A stretch of 61,841 nucleotides of DNA from positions 1 through 61,841 of the IMG/VR virus record IMGVR_UViG_3300036859_000137; one strand, written 5' to 3'. This document shows, one piece after another, positions 1 through 51,853 of the stretch. Within the stretch, counting starts at the first letter, position 1, and each line of letters starts with the position of its first letter. Below the pieces are notes generated by a model. The model had not been told where the DNA came from. It saw nothing but the letters and a program-made list of their open reading frames with translations, and did not search any database. This DNA is from a virus (lineage: Duplodnaviria > Caudoviricetes). A program made the translations under genes and the position numbers.

Positions 1-603
1 ATCGACGACGACGACACCGCATCCCGAGACATGGCGATCCAGCTCCACGAGCAGGGCGGAGACGTCTACTGGACCCACGGGCCGCGCGGGACCCTGAACC
101 TGTCCCAGCTGTGGAACGAGTGCTACGGCATCGCCCGGTACGACATCCTCCAGCACTCGTGCGACGAGACGATCTACCGCACCGAGGAGTGGGATACGAA
201 GGTGATCGAGGCGTTCGAGGCGTGGCCGGACCGGGTTGGCCTCGTCTACGGCCGTGACGGGATCCATGACTCGAACCTGGCCACCCACGGGTTCCTGCAC
301 CGCCACTGGGTGGACGCCGTCGGCTACTTCGTGCCTCCCTACTTCAGCTCGGACTACAACGATCTCTGGCTCCATCAGGTGGCCCAGGGCATCGGCCGGT
401 TGCAATTCCTCCCGGACGTGTTCACCGAACACATGCACCCGGCCGTGGGGAAGGGACCGCTCGACCTCACCCATCAGGAGCGCCTCGCCCGGCACGGGCA
501 GGACAACGTGGATCAGCTCTGGAATCAGCTCTTCCCCCAGCGGCAGGAAGACATCCAGAAGCTGATCACCTACATCGGAGACTTCGAGACGGACCAGGCA
601 TGA
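1..603 (+). CDS. Glycosyltransferase family 2-like protein (5' truncated by window)
   Basis: Frame open from base 1 (IDDDD...); 'LSQLWNECY..A.YDIL..SCDET', 'YNDLWL', 'EHMHP' resemble a GT-A fold; first gene of sugar operon. Confidence 0.65.
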   Translation: MDDDDTASRDMAIQLHEQGGDVYWTHGPRGTLNLSQLWNECYGIARYDILQHSCDETIYRTEEWDTKVIEAFEAWPDRVGLVYGRDGIHDSNLATHGFLHRHWVDAVGYFVPPYFSSDYNDLWLHQVAQGIGRLQFLPDVFTEHMHPAVGKGPLDLTHQERLARHGQDNVDQLWNQLFPQRQEDIQKLITYIGDFETDQA

Positions 604-1499
604 GAGTACTGATCAGCGGAGCCGGTGGCTTCGTCGGCCCCCACCTCCGCAAGCTCCTGGAGAATCAAGGTCATCTCGTCATGGGGTGCACCCTGGCCGG
701 TTGCGACGTCCGTGACTTCGAGCAGGTCCGGCACATGATCTCGGAGTTCCAGCCTGACAAGATCTTTCACCTCGCTGCCGTCTCGTGGCCCGGGGAGTCA
801 CTGCGCAACCCCCGGCGGGTGTTCGAGGTCAACACCGGCGGGACGCTCAACGTCCTGGAAGCGGTCCGGACCACCGGCTCACACGCGAAGGTTCTGATCA
901 CCGGGACGTCCGAGGAGTACGGCTATGAGCGGCCGGACCCCAACGAGATCATCACCGAGACCTCCGTATGTCTGCCGACCACGCCCTACGGCGCGGCCAA
1001 GCTCGGGGCCACGGCAGCCGGGCAGGCATACGCGCGCCGGTACGGGATGCACGTCGTCTGCACGAGGGCGTGGAATCACACCGGCTGGGGACGTCAGGCC
1101 GTCAATGCCGAGTCGTCGTTCGCGCGCCGGATCGTGGCCGTGGAACAGGGACAGACCCGGTTCGTCTCGCACGGGGATCTTTCCGCGTGCCGCAACTTCA
1201 CTTCGGTCCGGGATGTGGTCAAGGCGTACTCACTGGTGATCGACGCCGATCCTGGGATCTACAACGTGTGCTCGGACTACAACATGCCCATGTCGGAGAT
1301 CATGGCCAAGCTCATGGCCCTGTCCCGGCTGGACGTGAACGAGATCTACCTGAAGGAAGATCCGAATCTTGTCCACAGGGATCATACCGTCTGGCCGGTC
1401 CCGTCCTATGACAAGATCACGATGGCTACCGGGTGGGTGCCGGAGACGTCCCTGAACTCCATGCTGTCCGACGTCATGAGCTACTGGAGGCATCAGTGA
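600..1499 (+). CDS. NAD-dependent epimerase/dehydratase, GDP-mannose 4,6-dehydratase / Rmd-like
   Basis: GAGGFVG Rossmann motif, 'IFHLAAVS', 'TSEEYG', YGAAK catalytic motif, 'RNFTSVRDVVKAY'. Confidence 0.85.
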   Translation: MRVLISGAGGFVGPHLRKLLENQGHLVMGCTLAGCDVRDFEQVRHMISEFQPDKIFHLAAVSWPGESLRNPRRVFEVNTGGTLNVLEAVRTTGSHAKVLITGTSEEYGYERPDPNEIITETSVCLPTTPYGAAKLGATAAGQAYARRYGMHVVCTRAWNHTGWGRQAVNAESSFARRIVAVEQGQTRFVSHGDLSACRNFTSVRDVVKAYSLVIDADPGIYNVCSDYNMPMSEIMAKLMALSRLDVNEIYLKEDPNLVHRDHTVWPVPSYDKITMATGWVPETSLNSMLSDVMSYWRHQ

Positions 1500-2704
1500 T
1501 CTGCCGCAGCTGTGGAAGCGATCATCTCGTGGACGTGATCGACCTCGGTCAGCACCGGCTGCCGGACTTCCCCCGGCCCGAGGACCATCGGCCGGACACC
1601 CCCACGTACCGGCTCCGTCTCGTGATCTGCCTGGACTGCACCCTGCTCCAGCTCGGGGAGACGACGCCGCGCGCCAAGCTCTACCACGACCGCTACGGTT
1701 TCCGGTCCGGCACCAACGAGGCGATCCGGCTTGATCTTCTGGAGATCGTCCAGTACGCCCGGATGGTCAAGCCCGGAATCAAGAGCTGGCTCGACATCGC
1801 GTGCAATGACGGCACCCTGCTCAGCAACGTCCCCCCGGAGATCCACCGGACCGGGATCGACCCGGTGACCCCGATCGCCAGGGAAGCGCGCCAGAACAAC
1901 CGCGCCGACCGGGTGATCTACAACTACTTCAGTGCGCACTACTTCCGGCCCCGGGAGTTCGACGTGATCACCTCGATTTCGATGTTCTACGACCTCGATG
2001 ATCCGAACCAGTTCGTCCACGAGGTGAAGCAGTGTCTCGCCCCGGGCGGCATATGGGTGATCCAGCAGAACTACGCCGGGGACATGCTCCGGTCCAACGC
2101 GATAGACAACGTGTGCCACGAGCACGTCACGTACTTCGCTCTGCTTCCACTCATGATCCTTCTGGAGCGTCACGGGCTGGAGATCAATGACGTCACATTC
2201 AGTTCGGTCAACGGGGGATGCATCCGCACTCTCGTGTCCAGGATCGGCGACCGGCCGGTGAGCGCGTCGGTGCAGGAGGCGTACGAGCGCGAGGTGATCA
2301 TGGGTCTCCACCGGCCCGGCGTCTGGACGTCGTGGGGGGAACAGGTCCGGCGGGAGCTGGATCTCACCCGGAGCTTCCTCGTGAACGCGAAGCACCAAGG
2401 CCAGCTGGTCTACCTGTACGGCGCGAGCACCCGGGGCGGGACCATTCTCCAGATGATCGACGCCGGGCCGGACCTGCTCCCGTACGCCGTGGAGCGCTCG
2501 CCCGCGAAGGTCGGAGCGGTCATGTCCGCGACCGGAATCCCGATCATCAGCGAGGAAGCCATGAGGCATGACCGGCCGAACTTCCTGCTCGTCTCCCCGT
2601 GGTTCTTCAAGAGCGTGTTCCTCCGGCGCGAGGCGGAGTATCTCCGCAAGGGCGGCCGTCTCGTGTTCCCGCTTCCGCATTTCGAGATTGCGAGCACGTC
2701 ATGA
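1496..2704 (+). CDS. NDP-hexose C-methyltransferase (zinc-binding N-terminus, class I SAM domain, C-terminal domain)
   Basis: CRSC...CLDC zinc motif, 'LDIACNDGTLL', 'CHEHVTYF', 'VNGGCIR', 'YGASTRG'; GTG start overlaps upstream TGA. Confidence 0.85.
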   Translation: MICRSCGSDHLVDVIDLGQHRLPDFPRPEDHRPDTPTYRLRLVICLDCTLLQLGETTPRAKLYHDRYGFRSGTNEAIRLDLLEIVQYARMVKPGIKSWLDIACNDGTLLSNVPPEIHRTGIDPVTPIAREARQNNRADRVIYNYFSAHYFRPREFDVITSISMFYDLDDPNQFVHEVKQCLAPGGIWVIQQNYAGDMLRSNAIDNVCHEHVTYFALLPLMILLERHGLEINDVTFSSVNGGCIRTLVSRIGDRPVSASVQEAYEREVIMGLHRPGVWTSWGEQVRRELDLTRSFLVNAKHQGQLVYLYGASTRGGTILQMIDAGPDLLPYAVERSPAKVGAVMSATGIPIISEEAMRHDRPNFLLVSPWFFKSVFLRREAEYLRKGGRLVFPLPHFEIASTS

Positions 2705-3495
2705 AGTGGAATGATCACGTGGAAGCCTGGTCCCGGCCGCCGGTGGACGACGTCGGATATCTCAGCTCAGAAGATCTGATGTCCATGGGAGACACCCAGC
2801 TGAACCTGACGATCATGCAAATGGCCCACATCCGTTACGGCGGCTGGAGGAACTACGGCGGGCTGTGGCGCGAGATGCTCCACCTCGACGACACCCACGG
2901 CAAGGATGTGCTCGACTTCGGATGCGGAGTCGGCATGGAAGCCCGGGAACTCCAGGAAGTGGGCAACTACGTCTCTCTCGCGGACATTTCCGAGGCGAAC
3001 CTCCGCCTGGCATATCGGGTACTCCGGCTCGGGGATCATGATCCGGAATCCATTGATCTCTACCGGGTGACCGATGAGCCGCCGTACATCACGGCCGAGC
3101 CCGGATCCTTCGATGTGATCCACTGCTCCGGCGTACTCCATCACATCCCGTGGGCCCGGGAGATCATGATCCGGTTCCACGAGATCCTCCGCCCCGGCGG
3201 AGAGGTCCGGCTCATGCTCTACAGCGACTACGGGTGGTGCCAGGCCACGGGTGACGAGGATCTCCCGCACTGGTCTGCCAACACCGCCTCGCTCCCGGGG
3301 TTCGAGCGCTTCGTGTCGTTCATGGACTCGGTCGGCACGTATGCCGACTGGTACAACCGGGACAAGCTGGAGATCAGGTTCGGTGATCTGTTCGACGTCA
3401 CCGACTTCGCGTATCTCACCGAAGATCTCCGCTTCTGTGCGGCCGTCCTCACCCGGAAAGATCATGCAGTGATCCTGGAAAGGCTGAAGTCATGA
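2701..3495 (+). CDS. Class I SAM-dependent methyltransferase
   Basis: 'VLDFGCGVG', 'SFDVIHCSGVLHHIP', 'LRPGG'; ATGA overlap. Confidence 0.85.
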   Translation: MKWNDHVEAWSRPPVDDVGYLSSEDLMSMGDTQLNLTIMQMAHIRYGGWRNYGGLWREMLHLDDTHGKDVLDFGCGVGMEARELQEVGNYVSLADISEANLRLAYRVLRLGDHDPESIDLYRVTDEPPYITAEPGSFDVIHCSGVLHHIPWAREIMIRFHEILRPGGEVRLMLYSDYGWCQATGDEDLPHWSANTASLPGFERFVSFMDSVGTYADWYNRDKLEIRFGDLFDVTDFAYLTEDLRFCAAVLTRKDHAVILERLKS

Positions 3496-4760
3496 GCGAC
3501 GTCGGTGTCCTCGGACTGGGCAAGCTCGGGCTGATCATGGCCATGGTGCTGGACGTCCACGGGAATCACCGGGTCACCGGCTGCGATTTCTCCAGACGCC
3601 CCACGGACATCCTCACCGGCCAGGCTGATGCGGTGCCGAAGGAAGCGGACATTCTCCATCTGATCGCGAACAACCACCTGAACGTGATCAACGATCCGGC
3701 CTCCCTGGTGGCCAACGCAGATGTGATCTTCGTGGCCGTCCAGACGCCACACCCTCCGGCGTACGACGGAACCGTGCCGGTTCCGGAGGAGACGAAGGAC
3801 TTCGATTACAGCCATCTGATCAGTGCCGTCCGGCAGCTCTCCCGCGCGGCCGACCAGCAGTGCAAGTTCATCACCATCGCGGTCGTCTCCACGGTGCTGC
3901 CGGGAACCTGTGACCGTCTGCTGCGTCCTCTCCTCAGTTCTCAGGTCAAGCTCGTCTACACCCCGTCACTGATCGCACTGGGGAAGGTGGCGGACGATCT
4001 GCTCAACCCGGAGTTCGTGATCCTCGGTACGGACAGCTACGACGATGCGCTGCCGGTCCGGCAGATCTACGCCTCGCTCCACTCGCGGCCGGTGCTGATG
4101 ATGTCCATCCCGTCGGCCGAGCTGACCAAGGTGGCGTACAACACGTATACGTCGATGAAGATCGTTTTCGCGAACACGATGCTGGAGATCGCGGAGAAGA
4201 CAGGGGCCGATGCCGATGCGGTGACCGATGCTCTGTCCCAGGCCACGGTCAATCTCATGTCCCCGAAGTACCTGCGGGGAGGTATGGGCGGGGGAGGGTA
4301 CTGCCATCCCCGGGACGTGATCGCCATGTCCTATCTCGCCGACCGGCTCGATCTTTCCTCGGACCTGTTCGGCTTCCTGGCTCATGCCCGCGAGGCTCAG
4401 TCCATGTGGCTGGCGTCCGTGGCTCAGGATATGCACTATCTGACTGATCTCCCCGTGGTGATCCTCGGCAACGCCTACCGGCCGAACAGCGATCTTGCCG
4501 GAGGATCGGCCGCACTCCTGCTCTTCACCCAGCTCTCCCAGTTCGTCCCGTTGTTGCTCATGATCGATCCGTACACCGGCGATCAGACATGGGACGAGGT
4601 GGAGAAGATCACTGACAGTCCGTGCGTGTTCGTGATCGGCTGTGCACACCGGGAGTTCGCCCGGCTGGAGTTCGAGCCCGGCTCCGTGGTAATTGATCCG
4701 TCCGGCATCATCCCGGACCAGCCTGGGGTCACCGTGATCCGACTCGGGAGGAAGCTGTGA
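3492..4760 (+). CDS. UDP-glucose/GDP-mannose dehydrogenase family protein
   Basis: GLGKLG, 'FVAVQTP', 'STVLPGT', 'SAELTKVAYN', 'GGYCHPRD' catalytic Cys. Confidence 0.9.
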   Translation: MSDVGVLGLGKLGLIMAMVLDVHGNHRVTGCDFSRRPTDILTGQADAVPKEADILHLIANNHLNVINDPASLVANADVIFVAVQTPHPPAYDGTVPVPEETKDFDYSHLISAVRQLSRAADQQCKFITIAVVSTVLPGTCDRLLRPLLSSQVKLVYTPSLIALGKVADDLLNPEFVILGTDSYDDALPVRQIYASLHSRPVLMMSIPSAELTKVAYNTYTSMKIVFANTMLEIAEKTGADADAVTDALSQATVNLMSPKYLRGGMGGGGYCHPRDVIAMSYLADRLDLSSDLFGFLAHAREAQSMWLASVAQDMHYLTDLPVVILGNAYRPNSDLAGGSAALLLFTQLSQFVPLLLMIDPYTGDQTWDEVEKITDSPCVFVIGCAHREFARLEFEPGSVVIDPSGIIPDQPGVTVIRLGRKL

Positions 4761-5389
4761 CCGCGAACATATACGGAGGGGCGATCATGAACTGGCGCGG
4801 TCCCTACCGGCCCGGGGTGACCGTCGTGATGCCGGTCCATCTGCCCCGGCTGACGAACGGGGTATTCGACCGGGCGCTCCAGTCGATCAGGTGGCAAGAG
4901 CATCCGGTGGACGCGATCAGTATCGCCGTGGACACCACGCACGCCGGGGCGGCAGCGACCCGGAACGAGGCCCTGGAAGCCGTGACGACCGAGTGGACGG
5001 CTTTCCTCGACTCGGACGACCAACTCCGCCCGCACCACATTGGATCTCTTCTCACGGCCGCACAGCGCTCCGGCGCGGACGTGATCTATCCGTGGTTCAC
5101 GATCACTCCGGCCGGAGCCGATCCGTGGCCGGAGCGCGAGGGACAGCCGTTCGACCGGGAGCTGCTCAAGACCACGAACTACATCCCGGTGACCACCCTC
5201 GTGCGCACGAAGCTGATCAAGAAAGTCGGAGGCTTCCGGCCGAAGGGTCCCCCGGAAAATCCCTGCGATGACTGGGGGACATGGGATGCACTGCTGGAGG
5301 AGGGGGCAGAGTTCTACCACCTGAACGAGCGGACATGGTTCTGGTGGTGGTGGGCCGGTAACACCTCCGGACGGGGTGATGTCTGGTGA
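4757..5389 (+). CDS. Glycosyltransferase family 2
   Basis: 'VTVVMP', 'GAAATRN', 'FLDSDD' DxD motif, 'DDWG'. Confidence 0.85.
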   Translation: MTANIYGGAIMNWRGPYRPGVTVVMPVHLPRLTNGVFDRALQSIRWQEHPVDAISIAVDTTHAGAAATRNEALEAVTTEWTAFLDSDDQLRPHHIGSLLTAAQRSGADVIYPWFTITPAGADPWPEREGQPFDRELLKTTNYIPVTTLVRTKLIKKVGGFRPKGPPENPCDDWGTWDALLEEGAEFYHLNERTWFWWWWAGNTSGRGDVW

Positions 5390-5592
5390 GGCGGACCATG
5401 CTCCGGTGGACGACGCCGGAGCGAGCGAAGAAGAGGATCAGGCGAGTGATCACCGCCGCGAGCTTCCATCAGACCATCAGGGACTTCTACAGCTCGGGGA
5501 TCCTGGACTGGACCGGTCACATTGGTCTGATCAACGTCACGGAACCCTCGTGCGGGTGCTCGGTGTGCCAGCACGCACGCTTCACGATGTAA
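5386..5592 (+). CDS. Hypothetical protein
   Basis: GTGA-coupled 68-aa ORF with a CxCxxC tail. Confidence 0.45.
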   Translation: MRRTMLRWTTPERAKKRIRRVITAASFHQTIRDFYSSGILDWTGHIGLINVTEPSCGCSVCQHARFTM

Positions 5593-5600
5593 GGAAGATC

Positions 5601-6263
5601 ATGGGAGAAGCCAAACGCCGGGGGCGCAAGCTCAGTGACCGGCATCTGACCGTGGCGGTCTGTATCCCCACCGTGCCGGGCCGCGAGGACATGCTCATGC
5701 GGGCAGAGCTGTCCGTGATGCGGCAGGACCGCCAGCCGGATCAGTTCCTCGTGGAGGTGGACAAGGACCGTACCGGTGCAGCGGCCACCCGGAACCGGCT
5801 GCTGGAGCGCGTCGAGTCCGACGTGATCGCGTGGCTGGACGATGACGACTGGCTCAAGCAGAACCACCTCAAGGCGTGCATGCGGGTGATCGAGAACAGT
5901 TTCACCGTGGATCTCGTCTATCCCCGTCCCCACATGGTCAATGGGCGTGACCCGACGGCCGTCACTCATCAGGGCCGGTTTCCGGTGTCTCCCTGGGGGC
6001 TGAGGTTCACTCAGGAGATGGCCGCGCACATCATGCAGGTCGGATCGTTCATCCCGATCACTCACCTCGTGAGGACGGAGAGTGTGCGCCGGATCGGTGG
6101 CTTCCCCGAGGGCCGGACGCTGGAGAACGGCCGGTATCAGGGAGAGGACGAGCGGTACCTCCAGCTCCTCTTGGAGCAGGGTGCGGTATTCGAACACCTC
6201 GACGAGCGCACGTGGTACTGGTACGTCAACCCGAAGTCGACCGCAGGGAAACCGGGATCATGA
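5601..6263 (+). CDS. Glycosyltransferase family 2
   Basis: 'VAVCIPT', 'GAAATRN', 'WLDDDD', 'GEDE'; paralog of 4757-5389. Confidence 0.85.
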   Translation: MGEAKRRGRKLSDRHLTVAVCIPTVPGREDMLMRAELSVMRQDRQPDQFLVEVDKDRTGAAATRNRLLERVESDVIAWLDDDDWLKQNHLKACMRVIENSFTVDLVYPRPHMVNGRDPTAVTHQGRFPVSPWGLRFTQEMAAHIMQVGSFIPITHLVRTESVRRIGGFPEGRTLENGRYQGEDERYLQLLLEQGAVFEHLDERTWYWYVNPKSTAGKPGS

Positions 6264-6620: not shown

Positions 6621-7460
6621 ATGGACACTGACACGAGCCGGACACGACGCCTTGTCCGGTGGCTGAAGGACAAGATCGAAAAGCGTCAGAACGACAAGGA
6701 CGATCACGACCCGTGGTGGGTCACGCTCATGCTCGACGTCGGCCGACCGGCCGTCGCGATCATGATTCTGACGATGTGCGCGCCCGGCGAGCACTACCTG
6801 ATGCTGGAGGCGCGTTTCTCCGACCCCTTCGCATGGCTGGGACCGGGCACGCTGACCGCGTACGCGGGCATAGCCGCCGTCACGGCCACGAAGAGGCCCA
6901 AGGGGTCACCCGGCCACAAGACGGCCGTCCTGGGTGCCGTTCTGTCGATCGCCATCGCCATGGCAGCTCAGCCGATAGCCCACCTCTGGGGCGTGCAGGG
7001 GATCACGACCGAACGGGTATGGCTGATCATCGTCGTGTCCTCCGTCCCGTCCGCCGTGTTCGGACACCTGCTCCACATGGGGGCCGCGCCAACGATGAAA
7101 CGCCGGACACCGAGGGCGGACAGGAAGCGTGACAAGGCTCCGGACAAGCCCGCCCCGTCATGGGTGACAGAGGGCAAGGTTCACGCACAGCTGTCCAGGG
7201 CGTCTGTGTCCGGCGCCGGACAGACCGGCGGACAGGAGCCGGACACAGACAGGGACAGCATGACGGACACGGACACGAGGGGTGTCCGCCGGATGTCCGG
7301 GGGCTCGATGAAGTCCTTCGCCCTGTCAAAGATCATGGACAACCCCGCTGTCACAGACACCGAGCTGACGGACGCAATCAAGGAATCGTTCGGACAGGAC
7401 AGCAAGGCGAACAGCATCTACGTAGCGATCAAGCGAGCACGCCGGGAGGCAGCGGCATGA
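6621..7460 (+). CDS. SpdB2-like plasmid spread membrane protein with C-terminal putative DNA-binding helix domain
   Basis: About four hydrophobic segments, low-complexity linker, basic helical C-terminus; directly upstream of and coupled to traB-like gene. Confidence 0.6.
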   Translation: MDTDTSRTRRLVRWLKDKIEKRQNDKDDHDPWWVTLMLDVGRPAVAIMILTMCAPGEHYLMLEARFSDPFAWLGPGTLTAYAGIAAVTATKRPKGSPGHKTAVLGAVLSIAIAMAAQPIAHLWGVQGITTERVWLIIVVSSVPSAVFGHLLHMGAAPTMKRRTPRADRKRDKAPDKPAPSWVTEGKVHAQLSRASVSGAGQTGGQEPDTDRDSMTDTDTRGVRRMSGGSMKSFALSKIMDNPAVTDTELTDAIKESFGQDSKANSIYVAIKRARREAAA

Positions 7461-9415
7461 GTAAGGGCGGGAACGGCACGATGAACGAGGAGTCGGTGAA
7501 GATCACCCGGCTGCGGCACATGCCGCTGCGGTACCGGGCTCAGCCCTGGCTCACCCCGTGGGCGATCATGTTCACGGTCTTTGTGATCAGCTTCATCACG
7601 CACCACTGGGCGAACGGACCGGTGGCTCAGATCTTCCTCACGCTCATGGGCCCTGGCCTGGGCATTGTCACCTGGATCACCTGGGGGCGACGCCACGAGC
7701 ATGCCCAGGTCGCGGCCACCGCGTTCGTCGTCGGCCTGGGGCTGTGGCTGGCGCTCGCGACCGGCCTCGGGCCGCTGACCAGCGCGATGCTCTGGGGGCT
7801 GATCTTCGGTGGCTCGTTCCTGTGCCTGAGCTGGAACATCCGGTATGCCGGGATCACCCCGACCAACAGCCACGACAAGGTGAAGACGGGCCCGGTCGAC
7901 TCGATCGCCGAGGTCAAGGGGCTGAAAAACACGGTGACGAGCAAGGTCAAGCGGGTTGCCGACAAGGCGGGGGAGCGCGTCGAGATCTTCCTGACCCACC
8001 CCGGCGGCCGGAACACGACCAAGGATGTCCGCAAGCGCAAGGACAACATTGCCGGACTTCACGGGGTCGGACCGGACAGTATCCGGGTGTCCGAAGTGGC
8101 CGGACGAGGTGACAAGACGAAGGTCACCGTCCGGCTGGCCAATCCAACCACGGACATCGTTCCGTATCCCGGTCTGTCCATGCCCGGCAAGTCCCTCACG
8201 GCCGGACCGCTGCGGACCGGTGTCCGGGAGGACGGGGCACCCTCTGTCCACTGGATCACCGGAAGTGACGAGGAGTCCCGGGCCGCCTCGTCCACGCTGT
8301 ACACCGGCATGACAGGAGCCGGAAAGACGAGGGCGTACATCCTGTCACTGCTGGAGCAGGTCAGCCGGACAGACTGCGCCGTCCCTGTCATCGGTGACCC
8401 GGAGAAGTTCGCCATGTCCTTTGGGATGATCATGGACTATGTCCCGATTGCGGCGGACGGGCCGGAGCAGGTCGACCAGCTGATCAGGAACCTCCCGGAG
8501 GCCATGCGCTACCGGGCCGCGCTGCTGGGCTCCCTCGGCTACTACGACGGATGGGTGCCGGAGTGCTGGACCAAGCACGGCATCCCGGTGCAGCCGATCC
8601 ATGTGGAGGAGGCGGGCGGGTACCTCGCAGGAAACCCGGAGTTCTTCAAGGCCCTGACCTTGTGCCGGGCCCTGGGACTGCCCATGTCGATCTCTATCCA
8701 CATGGCGAAGTACAACCAGCTCCCCACCGAGTCGCGCGGCCAGTTCGGCAACAGCTTCGCGTTCGGTGTGAAGAAGATCGCGGAGGCCGCGTTCGCCCTC
8801 ACCGCCGAGACGATCCGCGCTGGTGGGGACCCCTCACGGTGGGCGAACAACTACCCCGGCCGGAACATCGCGGAGGTCACCGGCGTGCCGTCCGACGAGT
8901 GGCCCATGACGCACCGGGCCTTCAAGATCACGACCCCGGAGATCGTCGAGACCTTCGACGCCTGCCGCAACCGGGACCCCGGTATCGCGGTGTGCGACGA
9001 AGGAACGTTCGACCGGCTGAGCAGGGGGATCAACCGGCCGCAGCGGATGATCGTTTCCGTGCCGGACTGGAAGGGGGTCGACACCACCCTGACCGTTGAT
9101 CTTTCCGACTACCGGCCGCCGGTGGAGCCCGAGCCGGTCCGGGAATTCTCGATGATCAAGGGCGGCGCCGTGCCGACCGAGCCGGAGATCAACAACGAGG
9201 CTCAAGAGCTGGTCAGCCTCCGGATCGAAGAGCTTCGGGACTCCGGGGTCACCGAGTTGACCAAGGACGATTTCCATGATCTTGAGCTTCCCCGCGACCG
9301 GACGTGGATCTTTCACGAGCTGGCGCGGCGGGTCAAAATCGGGGAGCTGCGCCGGTTCCCCGGCAAGGAAGCCCGGTACGAGATCGTTCCGGCTGCCAAG
9401 AGCGAAGAGGGATGA
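7457..9415 (+). CDS. traB: TraB-like FtsK/SpoIIIE conjugative DNA translocase
   Basis: N-terminal TM segments, Walker A GMTGAGKT, Walker B 'IHVEEA', C-terminal winged-helix-like 'LTKDDF...RDRTWIFHELAR...GEL'. Confidence 0.8.
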   Translation: MSKGGNGTMNEESVKITRLRHMPLRYRAQPWLTPWAIMFTVFVISFITHHWANGPVAQIFLTLMGPGLGIVTWITWGRRHEHAQVAATAFVVGLGLWLALATGLGPLTSAMLWGLIFGGSFLCLSWNIRYAGITPTNSHDKVKTGPVDSIAEVKGLKNTVTSKVKRVADKAGERVEIFLTHPGGRNTTKDVRKRKDNIAGLHGVGPDSIRVSEVAGRGDKTKVTVRLANPTTDIVPYPGLSMPGKSLTAGPLRTGVREDGAPSVHWITGSDEESRAASSTLYTGMTGAGKTRAYILSLLEQVSRTDCAVPVIGDPEKFAMSFGMIMDYVPIAADGPEQVDQLIRNLPEAMRYRAALLGSLGYYDGWVPECWTKHGIPVQPIHVEEAGGYLAGNPEFFKALTLCRALGLPMSISIHMAKYNQLPTESRGQFGNSFAFGVKKIAEAAFALTAETIRAGGDPSRWANNYPGRNIAEVTGVPSDEWPMTHRAFKITTPEIVETFDACRNRDPGIAVCDEGTFDRLSRGINRPQRMIVSVPDWKGVDTTLTVDLSDYRPPVEPEPVREFSMIKGGAVPTEPEINNEAQELVSLRIEELRDSGVTELTKDDFHDLELPRDRTWIFHELARRVKIGELRRFPGKEARYEIVPAAKSEEG

Positions 9416-9749: not shown

Positions 9750-10136
9750 ATGACCGACCACGACGAGGTAGAGCTTTACCGGGAGCGGCTCCCCGCTCTT
9801 GTGGACTGGCTCAAGGGTGATCAGATCAAGCGCGCCGTCGAGAGCGGACAGCCGATCATCAACATCACGATCAACGAGGCGCCCCGTCCGGCGCCGCCCG
9901 CTCCGCCGGAGCCGAACATCGCGACCAAGTACGCCGGGCATCTCGTGCTGGCCACTTGGTCCGCGATCGTCTTCGCCGGGATCGCGGTCGTCTTCGTGAT
10001 GATCGCGGAAGCCATCATGATCGCGATGATCTCCCTGGCGGTCTGTGCCATCGCCATCGCGGCGGCCGTCCGGTCCCTCCGGATGTCCAAGGAAGAGGCG
10101 AAGGCGGTCGTCAGGGGACGCCAGGGGCGCCGGTAG
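9750..10136 (+). CDS. SpdD-like spread membrane protein
   Basis: Pro-rich linker then long hydrophobic stretch ending 'SLAVCAIAIAAAVRSLR', like SpdD-type proteins; within tra module. Confidence 0.55.
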   Translation: MTDHDEVELYRERLPALVDWLKGDQIKRAVESGQPIINITINEAPRPAPPAPPEPNIATKYAGHLVLATWSAIVFAGIAVVFVMIAEAIMIAMISLAVCAIAIAAAVRSLRMSKEEAKAVVRGRQGRR

Positions 10137-10300
10137 GCGCGGCCGGTCCCTCCCTACAGGGGAAGGCGCGCAGGCGCGTATATGCGCGCGTATGGCCACG
10201 GATTCAAAGGAAAGACACGGGAAAAGATCATCATAAGAAGATCCTCGGCCGGTTCTGTACCACGGTCCGAAGGAGGATTGGCCAAAAGATCAGAGATTCC

Positions 10301-10334
10301 AAGGGTCCCCAGCCTGCCAGCCGGGGGCCCTTTT
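10301..10334 (+). terminator. Terminator-like hairpin closing the tra module
   Basis: AAGGGTCCCC...GGGGGCCCTT followed by TT. Confidence 0.55.
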
Positions 10335-10383
10335 GATCTCCAAAATTAGTCCATGATTTTTTCCATACCCCCTTTGACCTGCG

Positions 10384-10432
10384 CTTATGTACCATAAGAT
10401 CATTTGCCATCCTTCCCAATCGGCTGTATGTT
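10384..10432 (+). promoter_or_regulatory. Housekeeping-sigma promoter with adjacent palindromic operator-like site
   Basis: -35 TTGCCA (10404-09), 17-bp spacer, -10 TATGTT (10427-32); CTTATG-TAC-CATAAG at 10384-98. Confidence 0.65.
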
Positions 10433-10438
10433 GGACAC

Positions 10439-10875
10439 GTACCAAAGAACAGCGGGTGATCGGCCCCCCGGGAAGCAAGATCCGGGAACGTCGCAAGATC
10501 CGAAAGGGTCCGTGATCACCTAAGAAGGCAGACAACCCACCGCCTTGATCGTCGGGAGACAGATCGAAGAGCTGAAATGCGGGGATGACGGACCGGAGGG
10601 TCCCCCAAAAAATCACTCGAAGATCCAAGGGAACGGACCGAATCGAACCCGGAGGTCCTTGATCACAAACCACCGCCTTTCCGGCGCTGAGAGATCAAGG
10701 GCAGATGGCGGAGGCGGAAACCTTGTACCGGATGGCTGGACAGCCGTGGATCGAACGGATCAAGATCAGGCCGAGGTGATGATCGCAATGGTCGAGGGGA
10801 TCTCGACACAGTCGATCACCCGAGGGAATCTGATGATCCGAAAATGGACCGGGGGGAGATCCCGGCATCATCTAC
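10439..10875 (+). ncRNA. Candidate large structured non-coding RNA
   Basis: No credible ORF; many helices and GNRA/T-loop-like loops; lies between promoter and tRNA-like element. Confidence 0.45.
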
Positions 10876-10877
10876 AT

Positions 10878-10953
10878 GGCGGCGCTGCGATAGACACCGG
10901 ATCGGAAGCCGGGATCGCGAGACGCTGAGGGGGTTCGAATCCCCCCGCCGCTA
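10878..10953 (+). ncRNA. tRNA-like element (degenerate type II, no proper D stem, non-canonical anticodon loop)
   Basis: Acceptor GGCGGCG/CGCCGCT, T arm GGGGG-TTCGAAT-CCCCC, CCGG/CCGG stem with 8-nt loop, GCG-AGA-CGC variable-arm-like hairpin. Confidence 0.6.
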
Positions 10954-11029
10954 CTGATCGACCGGCCGCGAGCGCGCCACAGCGTGGAAGCCGGTCGATC
11001 TTTCGCAGGTATGGACAGAGGAGCCGATC

Positions 11030-11191
11030 ATGCAGTTCAACCAGTTCAAGAGCGTCGATGAATTCCTCAAGATCGCTACGGAGAACGGTGTGGTGGTCAG
11101 CCGGGAGGACGTCGATCAATCGGCAGCCGGTGATCTCTTCGTGGACGACATGAACGCTGAAGAGTGGCTGGAGATCATGACGCAGGATTGA
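11030..11191 (+). CDS. Small hypothetical protein (53 aa)
   Basis: MQFNQFKSVDEFLK...; start inside repeat motif; below ORF-track cutoff. Confidence 0.65.
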   Translation: MQFNQFKSVDEFLKIATENGVVVSREDVDQSAAGDLFVDDMNAEEWLEIMTQD

Positions 11192-12760: not shown

Positions 12761-12986
12761 GCTTTGATCACTAGCCTGGCCAGGCTCACTACCTGAGCCA
12801 GGTACGGGGCGCGGATCACCGGGCGGGCACACCCCCGGGATCCGTCGCCAGCACAACCCGACCGGCCGGACATGCGACCGTGATCGACGCCTCGCTTCCC
12901 TCGGGACATGCGACCAAGATCACACCGACTCGCTTCCGGCCGGTCGGCACCCGGAGTCAAGGCAAGATCAAATCGAGGAGCACACC

Positions 12987-13994
12987 ATGTCCATGGAAAC
13001 CCGCGAGTGGCTGTCCAACAACACTCTGATCGGCTTCACCGAGAAGCGCGGAAACGCGTGGCACTACCGCCAGGGCGACAACAACCACTACCCCCAGGCG
13101 ATCCCGGTGGACGACGTCCTGAAGCGGCTGTTCTCGTGGAATCCGGTCAAGGTCCCCGAGCAGTGGACCGACCCCAAGACCGGCCTCACGGTAACCGGCA
13201 AGGACATCGTGATCGTCCGCGACGACATGACCGGTCCGGCCGCGAAGCTCGGCACCTTCACCGACGGCTACCAGCTGCACCCGTATCCGGAGTGGCTGGT
13301 CCACAACGTCTTCTCTCTCGTGGACGCGAGCGAGGAGCTGGGGGTTTCCTCCGCAGTCCTGCTCCGTGGCGGCAAGGTCGCCTCGGTGCAGATCGAGGTC
13401 CCCGAAACGTTCATGGGTCCCGGTGGGATCGAGGCCCGGCCGTTCCTCATGGCCTCGTCCTCGTTCGACGGGTCGATCTCGACCCAGTACGGCCGCGCGG
13501 TCACCCACGTCGTGTGTGACAACACGATGAACGCGGGGCTGAACGAGAAGGGCGGAAAGATCAAGATCCGGCACACCCGGAACAGCCTGGACGGCAAGGT
13601 CCAGGCCGCCCGCGAGGCGCTGGAACTGATCATGACCACGAAGGACGAGTTCTTCGCAGAGGTCGAGACGCTCTTGGACACCGAGCTGACCGACCGCGCG
13701 TTCGACGAGATCGTGGCCGAGCTGGTCCCCCTGGACGACGACGCGACCAAGCGTTCGGTGACCATGGCGATCAACAAGCGCGAGAAGCTGTACGGCCTCC
13801 GCTCGGACGACCGGGTCGCCCCCTGGTGGGGTACGGCGTTCGGTGGCGTCCAGCTCCTGAACACCTTCCGCCAGCACGAGCAGATCGTCCGTGGGGCCCA
13901 CCGGCCGGAGCGGAACATGCTCAACACCGTGTTGGGCAACACCGAGACCGAGGACCGGAGCGATCTTGCCCTCGTCCTGGCACACACCGGCTGA
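12987..13994 (+). CDS. DUF932-family phage/plasmid protein
   Basis: 'AWHY', 'LRGGK', 'SSFDGS', 'VVCDNTM', 'KIRHT', 'GTAFGGVQLLNTF..H' pattern; GAGGAG RBS. Confidence 0.8.
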   Translation: MSMETREWLSNNTLIGFTEKRGNAWHYRQGDNNHYPQAIPVDDVLKRLFSWNPVKVPEQWTDPKTGLTVTGKDIVIVRDDMTGPAAKLGTFTDGYQLHPYPEWLVHNVFSLVDASEELGVSSAVLLRGGKVASVQIEVPETFMGPGGIEARPFLMASSSFDGSISTQYGRAVTHVVCDNTMNAGLNEKGGKIKIRHTRNSLDGKVQAAREALELIMTTKDEFFAEVETLLDTELTDRAFDEIVAELVPLDDDATKRSVTMAINKREKLYGLRSDDRVAPWWGTAFGGVQLLNTFRQHEQIVRGAHRPERNMLNTVLGNTETEDRSDLALVLAHTG

Positions 13995-15581: not shown

Positions 15582-15988
15582 CCGGAGATGATCATGAAGC
15601 AGTCCCGGGTCCAACAGCAGACACACCGACCGGCCCCGCCGGTCCCTCAGGATCATCGGTCTCCCTCCGGGAAGATCACCTGGAAGAACTAGATCTAAAG
15701 CCATGGACGGCCGTCAGACGGCCGCCGGGGGCGACCGTGGCGTCATTGGTCGCCCCTGGATATGGATCTTGTCCAGGCGGCCATTCTGTGCCGTCCTGGT
15801 ACCGGCCCGGCGCATCCCGCCGGTCCCGGTGTATGGTTGGAACGTTCCGAAGATAGAAGGGAGGTGATCAGCCTCCCTCGCCCCCGTTGTGTAACGGATG
15901 CATGCCGCCCCCTCAAGGCGGAGGTGCCGGATCGTGACCGGCCGGGGGTACGCAAGGAAAGATCACCACCGGACGAAGGGATCAAAGC

Positions 15989-16574: not shown

Positions 16575-17164
16575 GCCTTGAGGGATACACCGGACCGACG
16601 TCCGGCCGGATCACGATCGGTGGCGACAAGCCCACCGAGGTCAAGCGCTTCTATGACAAGCCCCTGACCCGCGACGAGCGCAATGCCGTGGCGTGGTTCG
16701 AGGAGCTGTCTCCCCATGAGCAACTCCGGGAAGTCCGGCGCCTGAAGTGGAACCTTGATCAGGCAGAGTCCGACCGCGACGTCTTCAAAAGGACCGCACG
16801 CCGGTTGGACACGGAGATCCTCCACCTTCGTGCCGAGCTGGCCGCGAGGCGGCCGGACGGGTTCGAGATCCCCCGCGCGGCTGACGAGATCCTCAAGCTC
16901 GCGAAGGCATGGGGCTGGAAGACCGTGAAGGCGTGGATCCAGGCAGAGACGTATGGCGTCCCTGACCTGGACTGGTACCGGTTCGAGATTGCCATAGGCC
17001 GGGACGGGATCATCTTCCAGCTCTCGTGGTCCGTCCCGGTGGACGGCCACGGACGCGGTTCGATGATCCGCCGGGGGCTGGCCAAGTACCCCCGGCGCGA
17101 CTGGCACGATGCTCCGTCTCTGACCAAGATCAAGCGGATCATCAAGGGAGCCGAGGATGTCTGA
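16571..17164 (+). CDS. Hypothetical protein (coiled coil)
   Basis: ATGA coupling, 197 aa. Confidence 0.65.
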   Translation: MSLEGYTGPTSGRITIGGDKPTEVKRFYDKPLTRDERNAVAWFEELSPHEQLREVRRLKWNLDQAESDRDVFKRTARRLDTEILHLRAELAARRPDGFEIPRAADEILKLAKAWGWKTVKAWIQAETYGVPDLDWYRFEIAIGRDGIIFQLSWSVPVDGHGRGSMIRRGLAKYPRRDWHDAPSLTKIKRIIKGAEDV

Positions 17165-21938: not shown

Positions 21939-22147
21939 ACCTGGCGGAACTCAATGATCACATCGCCCGCGTCCGCCATGATCTCGAAGCTAAAAAGGAT
22001 GATCTTGACCGACTGCTTCTCGCCGACCCGGCGACCGGGATGATGGTCCGCTTCCAGATCGAATGTCTTGAGCCCCGGCTGCGGGAGCTGGAGCGCCAGG
22101 CACTGAGGACGACCAAGGAAGCCGACGCTCATACGGTCGCTGTCTAA
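21935..22147 (+). CDS. Hypothetical protein
   Basis: GGAGG RBS, ATGA coupling; last rightward gene. Confidence 0.55.
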   Translation: MNLAELNDHIARVRHDLEAKKDDLDRLLLADPATGMMVRFQIECLEPRLRELERQALRTTKEADAHTVAV

Positions 22148-23274
22148 GCGATCACTACAGGCGCCCGGTCCCTGCGCCTCTCAAGATCGTAAGCATGATG
22201 CCAACATTCCAGCCACCGCCACGCGTTCGGCTCCAGCCGGAAGCCGTCGGCCACCTCGCGCGCTGCTGCCGCCCGCTCCTGCCGGAGCGCCGGTGAGTCC
22301 TGGAGCTTCTTCAGCTCCTGATACCACCGGCGCGGGGTGTCCGCCAGAGCACCGATCACGAGACCGCTCTTCACCCCTCGCTGGTACAGACGCGAGTACT
22401 CCGCCCGGGGAGAGGCCACCCACGGGACCCCGAGCGCGGACATCTCCAGCGGCTTGAGCCAGCTCTTGCACCGGTTGAACCTCGTGTCCGCCAGGGGAGC
22501 CACGCCGATGCCGAGACCGGCCACCGCGCGCGGCCACTCGGTGAGGGCGATCGGGAGATCATGGCCAGACGGGTCCCTGGCAAGACCGAATGCGTACCCG
22601 CATCCAGTCGGGTCACCGATGACCTGAAAGGCGCCAGGATCGGCGCACAGCCGCGCCATGGCCCCGCCTATGGCCGACGGGTCATCCGGGTGCGAGGCGA
22701 GCGACGCTGGCCAGCCGATCCGATCACTGTCCACATGATCCACACCGTAGTAGAACGAGGGCAGGTGATTGAAGATCACTTTCCCTTGACCCTGGCGGGC
22801 GTAGACGTCGAGCAGGGCCGGAGTGGAGACCGTCACGAGCGTCGATTCCCGGCACGCAGCCACGAGGTTGTGCCAGCTGTTCCGGGAGAACTCCCCGCTC
22901 TTCCGGTCGACCAGCCACTGATTCCTCGGGTGGTAGCCCTTGTACGCCGGGTTGCTCGGATGGATCGACGTGAGATCGTCGTCCACATCGGTGACGACCG
23001 CGATCCCGTTCTTGCGCATGAGCGGGATCGCCTCGGCCATGAACTGATGAGTGATCCTCTGGAGCACCACCACATCGGTGTCAAGATCCAGGACTTCCTC
23101 GCAGTGCGAGTCCTTGTCACGGCGCCGGTTGCCGGAGATCCGCAGCCGGATGTCACGCTTCTCCGGCGGACGGAGATCGATATCGTGCCCCTGGCGCTTG
23201 AGTTCCTCGGCCGCCCAGATGAGCCGGAACGCTCCGCACCCGGAGCTGTCCGCCGGATAGATCGTGATCTTCAC
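22144..23274 (-). CDS. Glycosyltransferase (GT-B-like)
   Basis: 'GCGAFRL', 'DVDDD', 'VTVSTPAL', 'IGVAPLADTRFNRCKSWLKPLEMSALGVPWVAS'. Confidence 0.85.
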   Translation of the reverse strand: MKITIYPADSSGCGAFRLIWAAEELKRQGHDIDLRPPEKRDIRLRISGNRRRDKDSHCEEVLDLDTDVVVLQRITHQFMAEAIPLMRKNGIAVVTDVDDDLTSIHPSNPAYKGYHPRNQWLVDRKSGEFSRNSWHNLVAACRESTLVTVSTPALLDVYARQGQGKVIFNHLPSFYYGVDHVDSDRIGWPASLASHPDDPSAIGGAMARLCADPGAFQVIGDPTGCGYAFGLARDPSGHDLPIALTEWPRAVAGLGIGVAPLADTRFNRCKSWLKPLEMSALGVPWVASPRAEYSRLYQRGVKSGLVIGALADTPRRWYQELKKLQDSPALRQERAAAAREVADGFRLEPNAWRWLECWHHAYDLERRRDRAPVVIA

Positions 23275-51357: not shown

Positions 51358-51412
51358 GGTGATCCTCCCGGCCTTGATCGGCCACAGAGTACCGTGATCG
51401 GCTCGAATCCCC

Positions 51413-51853
51413 TCACGGGGTGGGGGCTCCGGCCCCCGCACTGTCGATGAACTTAGAGCACTCCAGCGCGGAATAACCCTCTCGGATGACCTTGAACGCA
51501 TGATCGTACTTCACGGGATCCGGGGCAGCCTTCCGCCCGGCGGGGGACTCCGAATCGAGAAAGACCTGATACAGCGGGCACAGAGCTTTCTGACGGGTGG
51601 TCGTCTGGGCGACGTCCAGCCGGTTGGTCAGATGCTTGAGCTGCCAGCCACCGAACGCCATGGCGAACGTCAGGACAACATCGAGGATCAGGCCGGTGAT
51701 TGCGACCACTGCGAGGACGCGGGTCTCATGAGCCTTTTTGGCCAGGGTGGTGAACTGGATTCCCTCGTCCTGGGCGAGCTTGTGAACCTTGTCCATCAGT
51801 CCGGTGGCCGCCTCGACGAGAGCTTCCACTTCCGCGTGCTCATGCTCCTGCAT
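51413..51853 (-). CDS. Membrane protein (possible lysis accessory)
   Basis: One TM segment, two C-terminal Cys. Confidence 0.55.
   Translation of the reverse strand: MQEHEHAEVEALVEAATGLMDKVHKLAQDEGIQFTTLAKKAHETRVLAVVAITGLILDVVLTFAMAFGGWQLKHLTNRLDVAQTTTRQKALCPLYQVFLDSESPAGRKAAPDPVKYDHAFKVIREGYSALECSKFIDSAGAGAPTP

Follow-up and report, generated by a model that had tools for sequence, protein, structure and literature searches.

A candidate large structured RNA with a 3′ tRNA-like element beside an early promoter of a soil phage

Introduction

Judged by layout, the closest analogue of the RNA described here is the Pleft RNA of the Cluster A mycobacteriophages, which is nearer to it than GOLLD or ROOL. 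According to the available text of Dedrick et al. (2017, PMC5712189), the phages L5, D29 and StarStuff each produce, from the early promoter Pleft ahead of gene 89, a noncoding RNA of ~500 nt that is very abundant and stable; in StarStuff it is the top phage transcript in abundance at all time points, and in L5, where its 3′ ends lie at 51,140–51,190, it is stable and ~10-fold above the downstream RNA. The same text describes the Pleft RNA region as toxic to the host, and reports that L5 deletions 51,195–51,619 and 51,195–51,407, in the 3′-proximal part, could not be purified. The term "tRNA-like" has no occurrence in that text.

Noncoding RNA serves a DNA-level function in other actinophages: the prophage origins of non-RepA Cluster A phages require one, of ~400–500 nt and in this like the present RNA, as described in the available part of Wetzel et al. 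(2020, PMC7157519). Those origins adjoin parABS and act in prophage maintenance, whereas no parABS was seen here. GOLLD and ROOL, with which the initial annotation had compared the locus, are likewise large, ornate, phage-borne and often tRNA-adjacent in the accounts available (PMC5737381; 10.1101/2024.12.08.627333). The comparison holds as an analogy only; the hosts differ, no shared motifs were seen, and neither Rfam family matches the window. Outside phages, the tRNA-like element that follows the MALAT1 long noncoding RNA is cut by RNase P, making the mature 3′ end, and both MALAT1-mascRNA and MEN-beta resemble the present locus in that a long noncoding RNA is directly followed by a tRNA-like element (available text of PMC8457004). 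These are eukaryotic, nuclear RNAs with an upstream triple-helix stabiliser and no homology to the present RNA, whose cleavage is predicted; the Rfam mascRNA model gives a weak, sub-threshold match at 10881–10952 (16.3 bits, E 3.2).

Location and relatives of the RNA

We found a candidate structured RNA of ~515 nt at 10439–10953, + strand, of the window, by which we mean the whole 61,841-nt stretch of DNA, from an uncultured soil phage, that was analysed. It lies directly 3′ of a sigma-70-type promoter and has three parts (Table 1): a conserved core (285 nt), a domain of variable hairpins, and a tRNA-like element of 76 nt. The initial annotation had proposed a folded noncoding RNA at the head of the early transcript, reading 10439–10875 as a large structured RNA that ends at a tRNA-like element. 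That observation is confirmed, and the reading as a large structured RNA is supported by covariation on the + strand among three lineages and soil-run relatives. On balance we favour the view that a discrete noncoding RNA, structured and ~515 nt long, makes up the start of the early transcript.

Table 1. Features in and around the candidate RNA (window positions)
Feature	Position	Strand	Comment
Terminator-like hairpin, short U run	10301..10336	+	closes upstream operon (gene 9750–10136)
Sigma-70-type early promoter	10404..10432	+	TTGCCA-17-TATGTT
Conserved core	10439..10725	+	81–85% identity to lineages C, B
P1	10455–61/10514–20	+	core
P1a	10467–71/10482–86	+	core
P1b	10497–501/10506–10	+	core
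P2	10525–29/10542–46	+	core
P3	10547–53/10558–65	+	core
P4	10580–89/10640–51	+	core
Px	10590–94/10599–603	+	core
Py	10655–64/10693–702	+	core
Pz	10674–77/10683–86	+	core
Variable hairpin domain	10726..10877	+	~46 nt shorter, poorly alignable in lineage C
Pv1	10775–80/10815–20	+	variable domain
Pv2	10791–96/10802–07	+	variable domain
Pv3	10849–53/10861–65	+	variable domain
tRNA-like element without D arm	10878..10953	+	
Acceptor stem	10878–84/10946–52	+	tRNA-like element
Closing stem	10885–89/10923–27	+	tRNA-like element
Hairpin, GGAA-containing loop	10897–900/10909–12	+	tRNA-like element
GNRA mini-hairpin	10915–22	+	tRNA-like element
T stem	10929–33/10941–45	+	tRNA-like element; loop TTCGAAT
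Discriminator	A10953	+	tRNA-like element
Strong hairpin between tRNA-like element and first early gene	10956..11000	+	
Start-associated motif	11013..11032	+	GGACAGAGGAGCC, 4 nt, ATG of first early gene (11030–11191)

The promoter that had been claimed just upstream is present, with the counterpart TTGACA-17-TATGTT in the L002 contig; its hexamers are identical in all four soil runs examined, and the spacer varies at 10411–10420. Transcription would start near 10439. The RNA strand is purine-rich, as had been noted (AT skew +0.31 to +0.33, GC skew up to +0.14). The hairpin closing the upstream operon folds at −22.1 kcal/mol (z −2.82) and has a similar counterpart in L002; a consensus scan did not call it.

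Relatives of the RNA are present in runs from several independent soil studies. The soil-run comparison draws on four runs, and parts of the stretch without contig cover in such runs are uninformative; 20 runs contain only a small share of the stretch, and none of the 24 runs listed as containing parts of it is an RNA run. Exact-pattern scans of viral contigs turned up no true homologue beyond the L002 contig: of 35 loci, 33 were chance matches and the other two (L012 and L025) were that contig again. A further locus from a later viral-contig scan (L038) is coding DNA and was rejected. All three loci from the scan of genome contigs were chance matches, one of them inside a 478-aa ORF that is presumably pyruvate kinase. 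Protein-anchored searches with the FtsK-like neighbour led to the L002 contig only, tblastn of this neighbour against cultured phages gave no match, and blastn of 10200–11100 against 50,697 phage records gave none.

The stretch matches no family of Rfam 15; the locus adds a large phage RNA family, ~515 nt long and backed by covariation, that is absent from that collection. At gathering scores the sole Rfam match in the window is a tRNA at 18345; at E ≤ 10 there are nine matches in 10100–11100, all far below their own thresholds. T-box, riboswitch, retron, pRNA and group I intron-interrupted tRNA were considered and dropped, none having an Rfam match; in addition, both acceptor strands are local, and no reverse transcriptase was seen among the PHROG matches.

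The claim that 10439–10875 holds no credible ORF is borne out. Along ORF 10545–10928, substitutions fall on the three codon positions as 15/16/13 in lineage B and 27/29/27 in lineage C, that is, without periodicity; indels are not multiples of 3 in 7 of 7 and 8 of 9 cases, respectively, and the frame is interrupted in L039, the first ~45 codons being open in three lineages. A PHROG search of the stretch found no family match, and no Shine-Dalgarno sequence was found at a usable distance upstream of the TTG start at 10545. A small reading frame downstream of the GGAGG at 10710 was rejected as not conserved, with 17 codons in the window and 6 in lineage B, both counted by eye.

Conserved core and variable domain

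The RNA is better conserved than the neighbouring gene, at 84.9% vs 78% identity in lineage B and 81.3% vs 69.6% in lineage C, and invariant blocks of up to 41 nt interleave with divergent stems. Because the long-range pairings that RNAalifold produced from MAFFT alignments were unstable, we relied on a structure read by hand and a model-based alignment. For the core (model R1, alignment A9) 96% of cells are paired, and 11 of 57 pairs are changed on both sides, vs 5.1 ± 1.4 in shuffles (none of 500 reached 11) and 0–2 in slid controls, these being counts over four distinct sequences from three lineages in an alignment fitted to our own structure. P2, P3, P4 and Pz are invariant, and about half of the core model thus lies outside the covariation support.

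Of six helices proposed initially from the single sequence, two stand with compensatory changes: GGTGATC/GATCACC (P1) and GTCCTTGATC/GATCAAGGGC (Py). Py has in addition lost 1 nt on both strands in two soil runs, and in L039 a shift in register between GATC palindromes may account for part of its signal. GATCC-GAAA-GGGTC is found in lineages A and B but gives way to another hairpin in lineage C (two double changes, two mismatches), and GGTGAT/ATCACC (Pv1) is kept in lineage B, lineage C being unalignable there. AAGGC/GCCTT is invariant in sequence across lineages, and TGATG/CATCA is lost in lineage B. Among the single-stranded invariant blocks are a C-rich ACAA(C/A)CCACCGCC motif in two copies, with the CCACCGCC repeat at 10537 and 10670, and a GGCGGAGGCGG tail (10707); the repeat and the tail, initially proposed as sides of a possible pseudoknot, do not vary, nor do any of the partners in a candidate pseudoknot between CCGCC and GGCGG. 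In the variable domain, Pv2 shows three double compensatory changes in run X5 (10792+10806, 10794+10804, 10795+10803).

Taken singly, the sequence shows no folding stability outside the range of chance (core, z −1.06; variable part, −1.72; tRNA-like element, −0.93). GATC, a palindrome that seeds many of the helices first proposed, is 4.8-fold overrepresented genome-wide (981 observed, 205 expected). Given this unremarkable folding and the GATC excess, the evidence for structure rests on comparison.

tRNA-like element

The tRNA-like element is real and covarying. Under model R2 (alignment A11), 97.8% of its cells are paired and 10 of 23 pairs are changed on both sides (slid controls, 0–1), again over four distinct sequences of three lineages aligned to our own structure. 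All seven acceptor and all five T-stem pairs are kept in the four distinct sequences, with three double changes; the T loop reads TTCGAAT, TTCGAGT or TTCGATC, the discriminator position holds A, and the acceptor stem includes G-U pairs compatible with a + strand RNA only. In the arm, minimum free energy folds of lineages A and B pair GCGAU with AUCGC and do not form the closing stem, and the relative in soil run X9 has a wholly different stem. U at acceptor position −1, the nucleotide that bacterial RNase P prefers, is invariant in six sequences.

In its 7-bp acceptor, 5-bp T stem, TTCGAAT-type loop and discriminator A the element is like a canonical tRNA; unlike one, it has neither a D arm nor an anticodon loop of 7 conserved nt, since no D stem can be drawn and the arm loop differs among lineages and is replaced in X9. 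RF00005 has no match in 10100–11100 at E ≤ 10, and ARAGORN at default settings calls no tRNA in the stretch, L002, L039 or L040; a "tRNA-Ala(agc)" has to be forced with the relaxed setting -ps80. The tRNA-like domain of tmRNA also has its D arm replaced and a single long arm leaving the junction, and the present element resembles it in both. A tmRNA was rejected: ARAGORN calls none in the stretch, only the T loop matches an Rfam tmRNA model (9.7 bits), and both acceptor strands are local, within 76 nt.

Between this element and the first early gene lies a strong hairpin (−29.1 kcal/mol, z −3.67) with one compensatory pair in lineage C. It may be a terminator or attenuator, or a stabiliser of the mRNA 5′ end; it could also end the RNA by termination, without tRNA-type processing. 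It is absent from lineage B (missing in L040 and L041). There, with no hairpin between tRNA-like element and gene, the RNA would be co-transcribed with the early genes, and would therefore need processing to be discrete.

Comparison with Cluster A phages

We found a tRNA-like element in L5 as well, at 51,226–51,134, coinciding with the published 3′-end region of the Pleft RNA. Model R2 matches L5 at 51,129–51,176 (15 bits, E about 6e-4), and the Rfam tRNA-Sec model scores 22.1 bits, below threshold, at 51,133–51,228. Across nine Cluster A phages the element has 11 of its 16 pairs changed on both sides, including 4 of 5 T-stem pairs, around an invariant TTCGATT loop; U at −1 is not conserved. 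The two loci, both in actinophage-type genomes, share the order of early lytic promoter, ~450–500 nt without conserved ORF, tRNA-like element, hairpin and first early gene. The L5 element differs in being longer (about 93 nt) with an extra arm, and the L5 RNA, unlike ours, carries stoperator repeats and sits at the genome end. Model R1 reaches at best 4.2 bits on the right end of L5. With no similarity in the core, a shared function is an analogy only, and the abundance, stability, toxicity and failed deletions have been shown for Cluster A only. What the architecture does is link the new family to the Pleft RNA, and the shared tRNA-like module offers a concrete, testable idea on RNA ends and stability, L5 and D29 being cultured.

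Possible function and alternative explanations

The features above suggest the following course. Transcribed from the conserved promoter, the RNA would fold into the multi-helix core with its invariant single-stranded blocks, followed by the variable hairpins and a tRNA-like module that combines an acceptor/T-arm minihelix with a single long arm. Host tRNA-maturation enzymes might recognise the minihelix, with RNase P cutting on the 5′ side of G10878, and either RNase Z or an exonuclease, together with the CCA-adding enzyme, acting after A10953. Such processing would detach a stable RNA from the early mRNA that follows it, or give that RNA a tRNA-like cap protecting its 3′ end, and the RNA may then act in trans early in infection, as is thought for the Cluster A Pleft RNA.

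More tentatively, and as a possibility we would not yet put at even chances, unrelated actinobacteriophages may open their early programme with a structured RNA of ~0.5 kb whose 3′ tRNA-like module hijacks host tRNA maturation to produce and stabilise a host-takeover RNA. The machinery taken over would be RNase P, RNase Z and the CCA-adding enzyme, perhaps also a synthetase or EF-Tu. If this were so, the window RNA would represent a new family of such tRNA-tailed early RNAs, the 3′ end, stability and undeletable 3′ part of the L5/D29 Pleft RNA would be explained, and tRNA mimicry for the formation of RNA 3′ ends, known from MALAT1, would extend to phages.

The strongest competitor, which we regard as unlikely, is an early-operon leader (5′ UTR) that acts in cis alone and modifies polymerase or controls stability or translation downstream, no separate RNA being made, with the processive antitermination RNAs HK022 put and EAR as models. 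Its position directly between early promoter and first early gene would suit a leader, as would lineage B, where no hairpin separates RNA from gene, and the start-associated motif of five downstream genes, to which a ACGGACCGA...GGAGG stretch of the core is similar. Against this, 285 nt of core and 230 nt more make a large leader, the known antitermination RNAs being to our knowledge all far smaller, and the covarying tRNA-like module is left without a role; moreover, the analogous L5 RNA accumulates well above the RNA downstream and is stable (PMC5712189, available text). An RNA-primed replication origin, at which a persistent RNA-DNA hybrid would be processed to a primer as with ColE1 RNA II, is distinctly improbable. 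It could draw on the purine-rich RNA strand, on the precedent of the actinophage origins requiring noncoding RNA (PMC7157519, available text) and on the 3′-OH that RNase P cleavage would leave, but cumulative GC skew has no turning point here, 12800–13100 is similarly purine-rich, and the precedent RNAs adjoin parABS, none of which was seen in the window.

We give less credence still to an element acting as DNA, that is, clustered sites, either GATC or protein-binding, for methylation-sensitive control or in the manner of stoperator repressor sites. The 437-nt stretch does hold 17 GATC, against one per 63 nt genome-wide, and two copies of a 13–15-nt repeat; but the compensatory changes, the paired 1-bp deletions and the G-U pairs confined to one strand are unexpected for protein-binding DNA, and the window contains the extended repeat just twice, for which reason the repeat was rejected as a stoperator-like genome-wide site. 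Least credible of all are the readings that the helices arose by chance in a spacer rich in GATC, or that ORF 10545–10928 encodes a small protein. Single-sequence z values near −1, the mutual pairing of GATC palindromes and the ~45 open codons are what these would predict, yet the stretch is better conserved than the flanking gene and covaries in both core and tRNA-like element, and the ORF shows neither codon periodicity nor an intact frame in L039, suffers frame-shifting indels, and lacks both a usable Shine-Dalgarno sequence and a PHROG family. A discrete structured RNA remains our preferred reading of the locus.

Start-associated motif of the early genes

The motif before the first early gene recurs, with at most two mismatches, as five copies (11013, 11259, 11425, 11734 and 12130), all in the early region and each followed by 4 nt and an ATG. 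The start-associated sequences of Cluster K, as described in the available text of PMC3203893, are asymmetric 13-nt repeats that contain AGGAG and lie, in several non-structural genes, a few nt upstream of the ATG. By this definition the window motif is a start-associated sequence, and its sequence differs from the Cluster K consensus.

Relatives and locus

Positions 10439-10953 hold a conserved, non-coding, structured plus-strand element that lies behind a conserved promoter and ends in a covarying mimic of a tRNA acceptor and T arm. Relatives were sought by pattern scans and protein-anchored scans, and three lineages were recovered: A, the window itself; B, two loci (L040, L041) alike at 99.6% and sharing 84.9% identity with the window over 10372-10954; and C, three loci (L002, L042, L039) that are 97–99% alike and 81.3% identical to it over 10401-10722. 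The neighboring gene is conserved less than the RNA (78% in B, 69.6% in C). The remaining loci from the scans were all chance matches. Further relatives are contigs of four soil metagenome runs from four studies, aligned at a likeness of at least 80%; their depths are 7.3, 2.6, 2.2 and 8.0, so that an isolated difference in either of the shallow runs (2.6 and 2.2) could be an error.

Features of the RNA locus, with stem sequences in the three lineages
Feature	Position	Lineage A	Lineage B	Lineage C	Remark
Gene	9750-10136				Precedes terminator-like hairpin
Terminator-like hairpin	10301-10336				z −2.82
Promoter-like site	10404-10432	TTGCCA-17-TATGTT	TTGCTA-17-TATCTT	TTGACA-17-TATGTT	Just 5′ of stretch without credible ORF
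P1	10455-10461/10514-10520	GGUGAUC/GAUCACC	GGUGAUC/GAUCAUC	GAAGAUC/GAUCUUC	Hand-read
Px	10590-10594/10599-10603	GGACC/GGUCC	GGCCUC/GAGGCC	GGCCCC/GGGGCC	Hand-read
Py	10655-10664/10693-10702	GUCCUUGAUC/GAUCAAGGGC	GUUCUUGAUC/GAUCAAGAGC	GUCUUGAUC/GAUCAAGGC	Hand-read
tRNA-like element	10878-10953				3′ of stretch without credible ORF
Acceptor stem		GGCGGCG/CGCCGCU	GGCAGCG/CGCUGCC	GGCAGCG/CGUUGCU	7 bp
T stem					5 bp, T-type loop; GGGGG/CCCCC, GGGAG/CUCCC, GCGGG/CCCGC
Closing stem					Encloses 4–5-bp hairpin (GGAA-containing loop) and 2-bp GNRA mini-hairpin
Discriminator	10953				A (A10953)
Strong hairpin	10956-11000				z −3.67
First of five small early genes	11030 (start)				

The initial annotation had placed a promoter just upstream of the RNA, and this is borne out: in all four aligned soil runs the spacer (10411-10420) varies between unchanged hexamers, as would be expected if the promoter works. 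Transcription would start near 10439. Downstream, a start-associated motif, GGAC[ACT]GAGGAGCC followed by 4 nt and ATG, occurs in five copies at the small early genes (11013, 11259, 11425, 11734 and 12130, plus strand) and lineages B and C also have it 5′ of the first gene; it resembles the start-associated sequence of Cluster K mycobacteriophages, although the consensus differs. The hairpin beyond the tRNA-like element is kept in lineage C with a compensatory pair and is absent in lineage B.

Core and variable domain

All the helices listed in the initial annotation are present in the window; TGATG/CATCA is not kept in lineage B. The stretch 10439-10875 contains 17 copies of GATC, whose palindromic sequence seeds several of those six helices, and folding of the single sequence gives unexceptional energies (z −1.06 for the core, 10439-10725; −1.72 for the variable part, 10726-10877; −0.93 for the tRNA-like element), so the window sequence alone would not prove structure. 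Across lineages, divergent stems in the core are interspersed with invariant blocks as long as 41 nt. A covariance model of the core (R1) was built from lineages A and B with the hand-read structure and then used to align all six sequences, giving 96% of cells paired. Of 57 pairs, 11 changed on both sides; shuffles gave 5.1 ± 1.4, with none of 500 reaching 11, and partners slid by 1–3 columns gave 0–2. The count of 11 comes from four distinct sequences of three lineages in an alignment fitted to R1, may include a register artefact in Py of L039, and draws nothing from P2, P3, P4 and Pz, which never vary. The covariation that the initial annotation had proposed as a check is seen.

Py in lineage C lacks one nucleotide from each strand, and runs X5 and X12 show the same paired loss, at 10658 and 10699. 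The Pz stem is constant with a variable loop (UUUCC, UCAC, AUACC, AUUCC), and the sole variable bases of P3 and P4 are bulges, at 10561 and 10642. The variable domain is well conserved between A and B; in C it is about 46 nt shorter and poorly alignable. In lineage B its Pv2 hairpin (10791-10796/10802-10807) carries one mismatch alongside two double changes, and in run X5 three clean double changes (10792+10806, 10794+10804, 10795+10803). The two C-rich ACAA(C/A)CCACCGCC repeats (one of them in a terminal loop) are invariant, as is the GGCGGAGGCGG tail of the core, and these are the best candidates for contact sites.

tRNA-like element

The RNA does end, as first proposed, at a tRNA-like element. 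It lacks a D arm, and neither default ARAGORN nor Rfam calls it. In the alignment to its covariance model (R2), 97.8% of cells are paired and 10 of 23 pairs changed on both sides (slid controls, 0–1). The minimum free energy fold in lineages A and B pairs GCGAU with AUCGC in place of the closing stem; either fold gives a minihelix and one long arm. In run X9 both the stem and the loop of this arm are entirely different, so the loop does not decode. In the window and loci there is no second copy of either model, the next best scores being 8.1 bits (R1) and 14.8 bits (R2); the latter, at 16834-16888 (plus strand, E 0.024) in an ORF-rich stretch, is probably chance. Run X12 has 414 nt between the points matching 10878 and 11013, where the window has 134 nt (tRNA-like element and hairpin), and 70 other letters replace its Px region; these replacements indicate that the RNA family has modular 3′ ends.

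Proposed function and alternatives

The RNA would be transcribed early, its minihelix recognized by RNase P and cut 5′ of G10878. RNase P prefers U at −1, and that U is invariant in the six sequences. 3′ tRNA maturation after A10953 would then yield either two molecules, of ~440 and 76 nt, or a single ~515-nt RNA protected by its tRNA-like 3′ end, and the stable RNA may act in trans. End formation by tRNA-processing enzymes is a testable inference.

A purely cis-acting leader is one rival to this scheme. In lineage B the tRNA-like element and the first gene's start-associated motif lie only ~25 nt apart, with no hairpin between, so that the RNA must belong to the early transcript, at least in B, and could become discrete only through processing. 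An RNA-primed origin is another, with precedent in PMC7157519. A cluster of DNA-level sites would also be a rival; the acceptor-stem G-U pairs are compatible only with plus-strand RNA. As to chance or coding, the first ~45 codons of ORF 10545-10928 are open in all three lineages, which we attribute to the high nucleotide conservation there. The substitutions in this ORF are even across codon positions (15/16/13 in B, 27/29/27 in C), its indels measure 1, 1, 1, 1, 11, 1 and 1 nt in B and 1, 1, 1, 1, 2, 11, 9, 23 and 4 nt in C, L039 is frameshifted by a 1-nt insertion, and no Shine-Dalgarno sequence lies at a usable distance 5′ of its TTG start; the stretch therefore has no credible ORF, as the initial annotation held. 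Its reading as a structured non-coding RNA is supported, and the feature is real.

No Rfam 15 family matches the RNA. Searches of a mainly open-access literature covered phage tRNA-like leader RNAs, large phage RNAs, mycobacteriophage early non-coding RNAs and start-associated sequences; within this scope there was no description of the window RNA or of a tRNA-like element in Pleft RNA. We regard the window RNA as a new form of a known kind, the early non-coding leader RNAs of actinophages.

Comparison with the Cluster A Pleft RNA

Pleft, the early lytic promoter of Cluster A mycobacteriophages, yields a very abundant, stable ~500-nt RNA without conserved ORF, 5′ of gene 89; in L5 it starts at 51,672 and ~90% of ends fall at 51,140-51,190 (PMC5712189). 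According to the same paper, L5 deletions 51,195-51,619 and 51,195-51,407 could not be purified, deletion 51,407-51,619 was viable, and the region proved toxic to E. coli and M. smegmatis. A 2025 preprint (10.1101/2025.11.21.689395) shows the Pleft RNA peak again in D29. The term "tRNA-like" does not occur in the former, nor "tRNA" in the latter.

We searched the L5 right end with both models. R1 gave no match (best 4.2 bits). On the transcribed strand R2 matched at 51,129-51,176, with 15 bits (E ~6e-4 by rough calibration), and the Rfam tRNA-Sec model scored 22.1 bits on 51,133-51,228 (E 0.31), short of the 47 bits it requires. Conservation of this 3′ region extends to 142 Cluster A records. 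In an alignment of nine phages (L5 and eight hand-picked from the 40 matches listed), 96.5% of cells are paired and 11 of 16 pairs changed on both sides (slid controls, 2–6). Five versions of the T stem (UCGGG/CCCGA, CGCGG/CCGCG, CCAGG/CCUGG, GAGGG/CCCUC, GAGAG/CUCUC) close an invariant UUCGAUU (TTCGATT) loop, all five pairs of an inner hairpin with a GGAAUG loop change, and the acceptor is GGGUAG/CUACCC in eight phages, Adzzy differing. The Pleft RNA of Cluster A thus has a covarying tRNA-like element (L5 51,133-51,226; 634-727 of L046, minus strand) at the site of the 3′ ends reported in PMC5712189. It is followed by a hairpin, a stoperator and gene 89. The failed L5 deletion 51,195-51,407 takes out the 5′ third of the element, consistent with its mattering. 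In both the window and Cluster A, the promoter is followed by a ~450-nt non-coding RNA, a tRNA-like element, a hairpin and the first early gene, in that order, but the two RNA bodies have no detectable homology.

The phage genome

The window is an entire viral contig (61,841 bp, 64% G+C, estimated 67% complete). PHROG matches mark a tailed phage: from ~22 kb the minus strand encodes terminase, portal, major head, tape measure and endolysin, and the plus strand carries sugar-modifying enzymes and many small genes. Its capsid shares ~30% identity with capsids of Gordonia, Mycobacterium and Microbacterium phages, and the host is likely actinobacterial. Cultured phages gave no match to the RNA region or its FtsK-like neighbor; metagenomes containing the region are from soil, root and groundwater. 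That neighbor (7160-9415, plus strand), a 751-aa protein with a Walker-A motif and apparent N-terminal membrane segments, reads as FtsK/TraB-like from its sequence alone; the one PHROG family that it matches has no known function, and it is 57% identical in L002 (best segment).

GATC is 4.8-fold over-represented in the window (981 against 205 expected, one per 63 nt), peaking at 23–29 per kb at 10–13 kb, with equal enrichment in L002 (201 in 12.2 kb); there is strong avoidance of CTAG (0.07), TTAA (0.03) and TATA (0.19). A glycan-modifying set unusually large for a phage lies at 1-6263, 22144-23274 and 57804-58853; it comprises several sugar-nucleotide enzymes and glycosyltransferases (UDP-glucose dehydrogenase, epimerases, methyltransferase). 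In a 1177-aa protein (46086-49619, minus strand), the N-terminal domain matches an "RNA ligase" PHROG (residues 24-211, E 1.3e-27) and the C-terminal part is MuF/portal-associated. ARAGORN calls a tRNA-Glu(CUC) at 15880-15951 (plus strand), 3′ of a hairpin and 5′ of the gene at 16056; with an atypical T loop on reading and no Rfam tRNA match at E ≤ 1, it may be a second unusual tRNA-like element.
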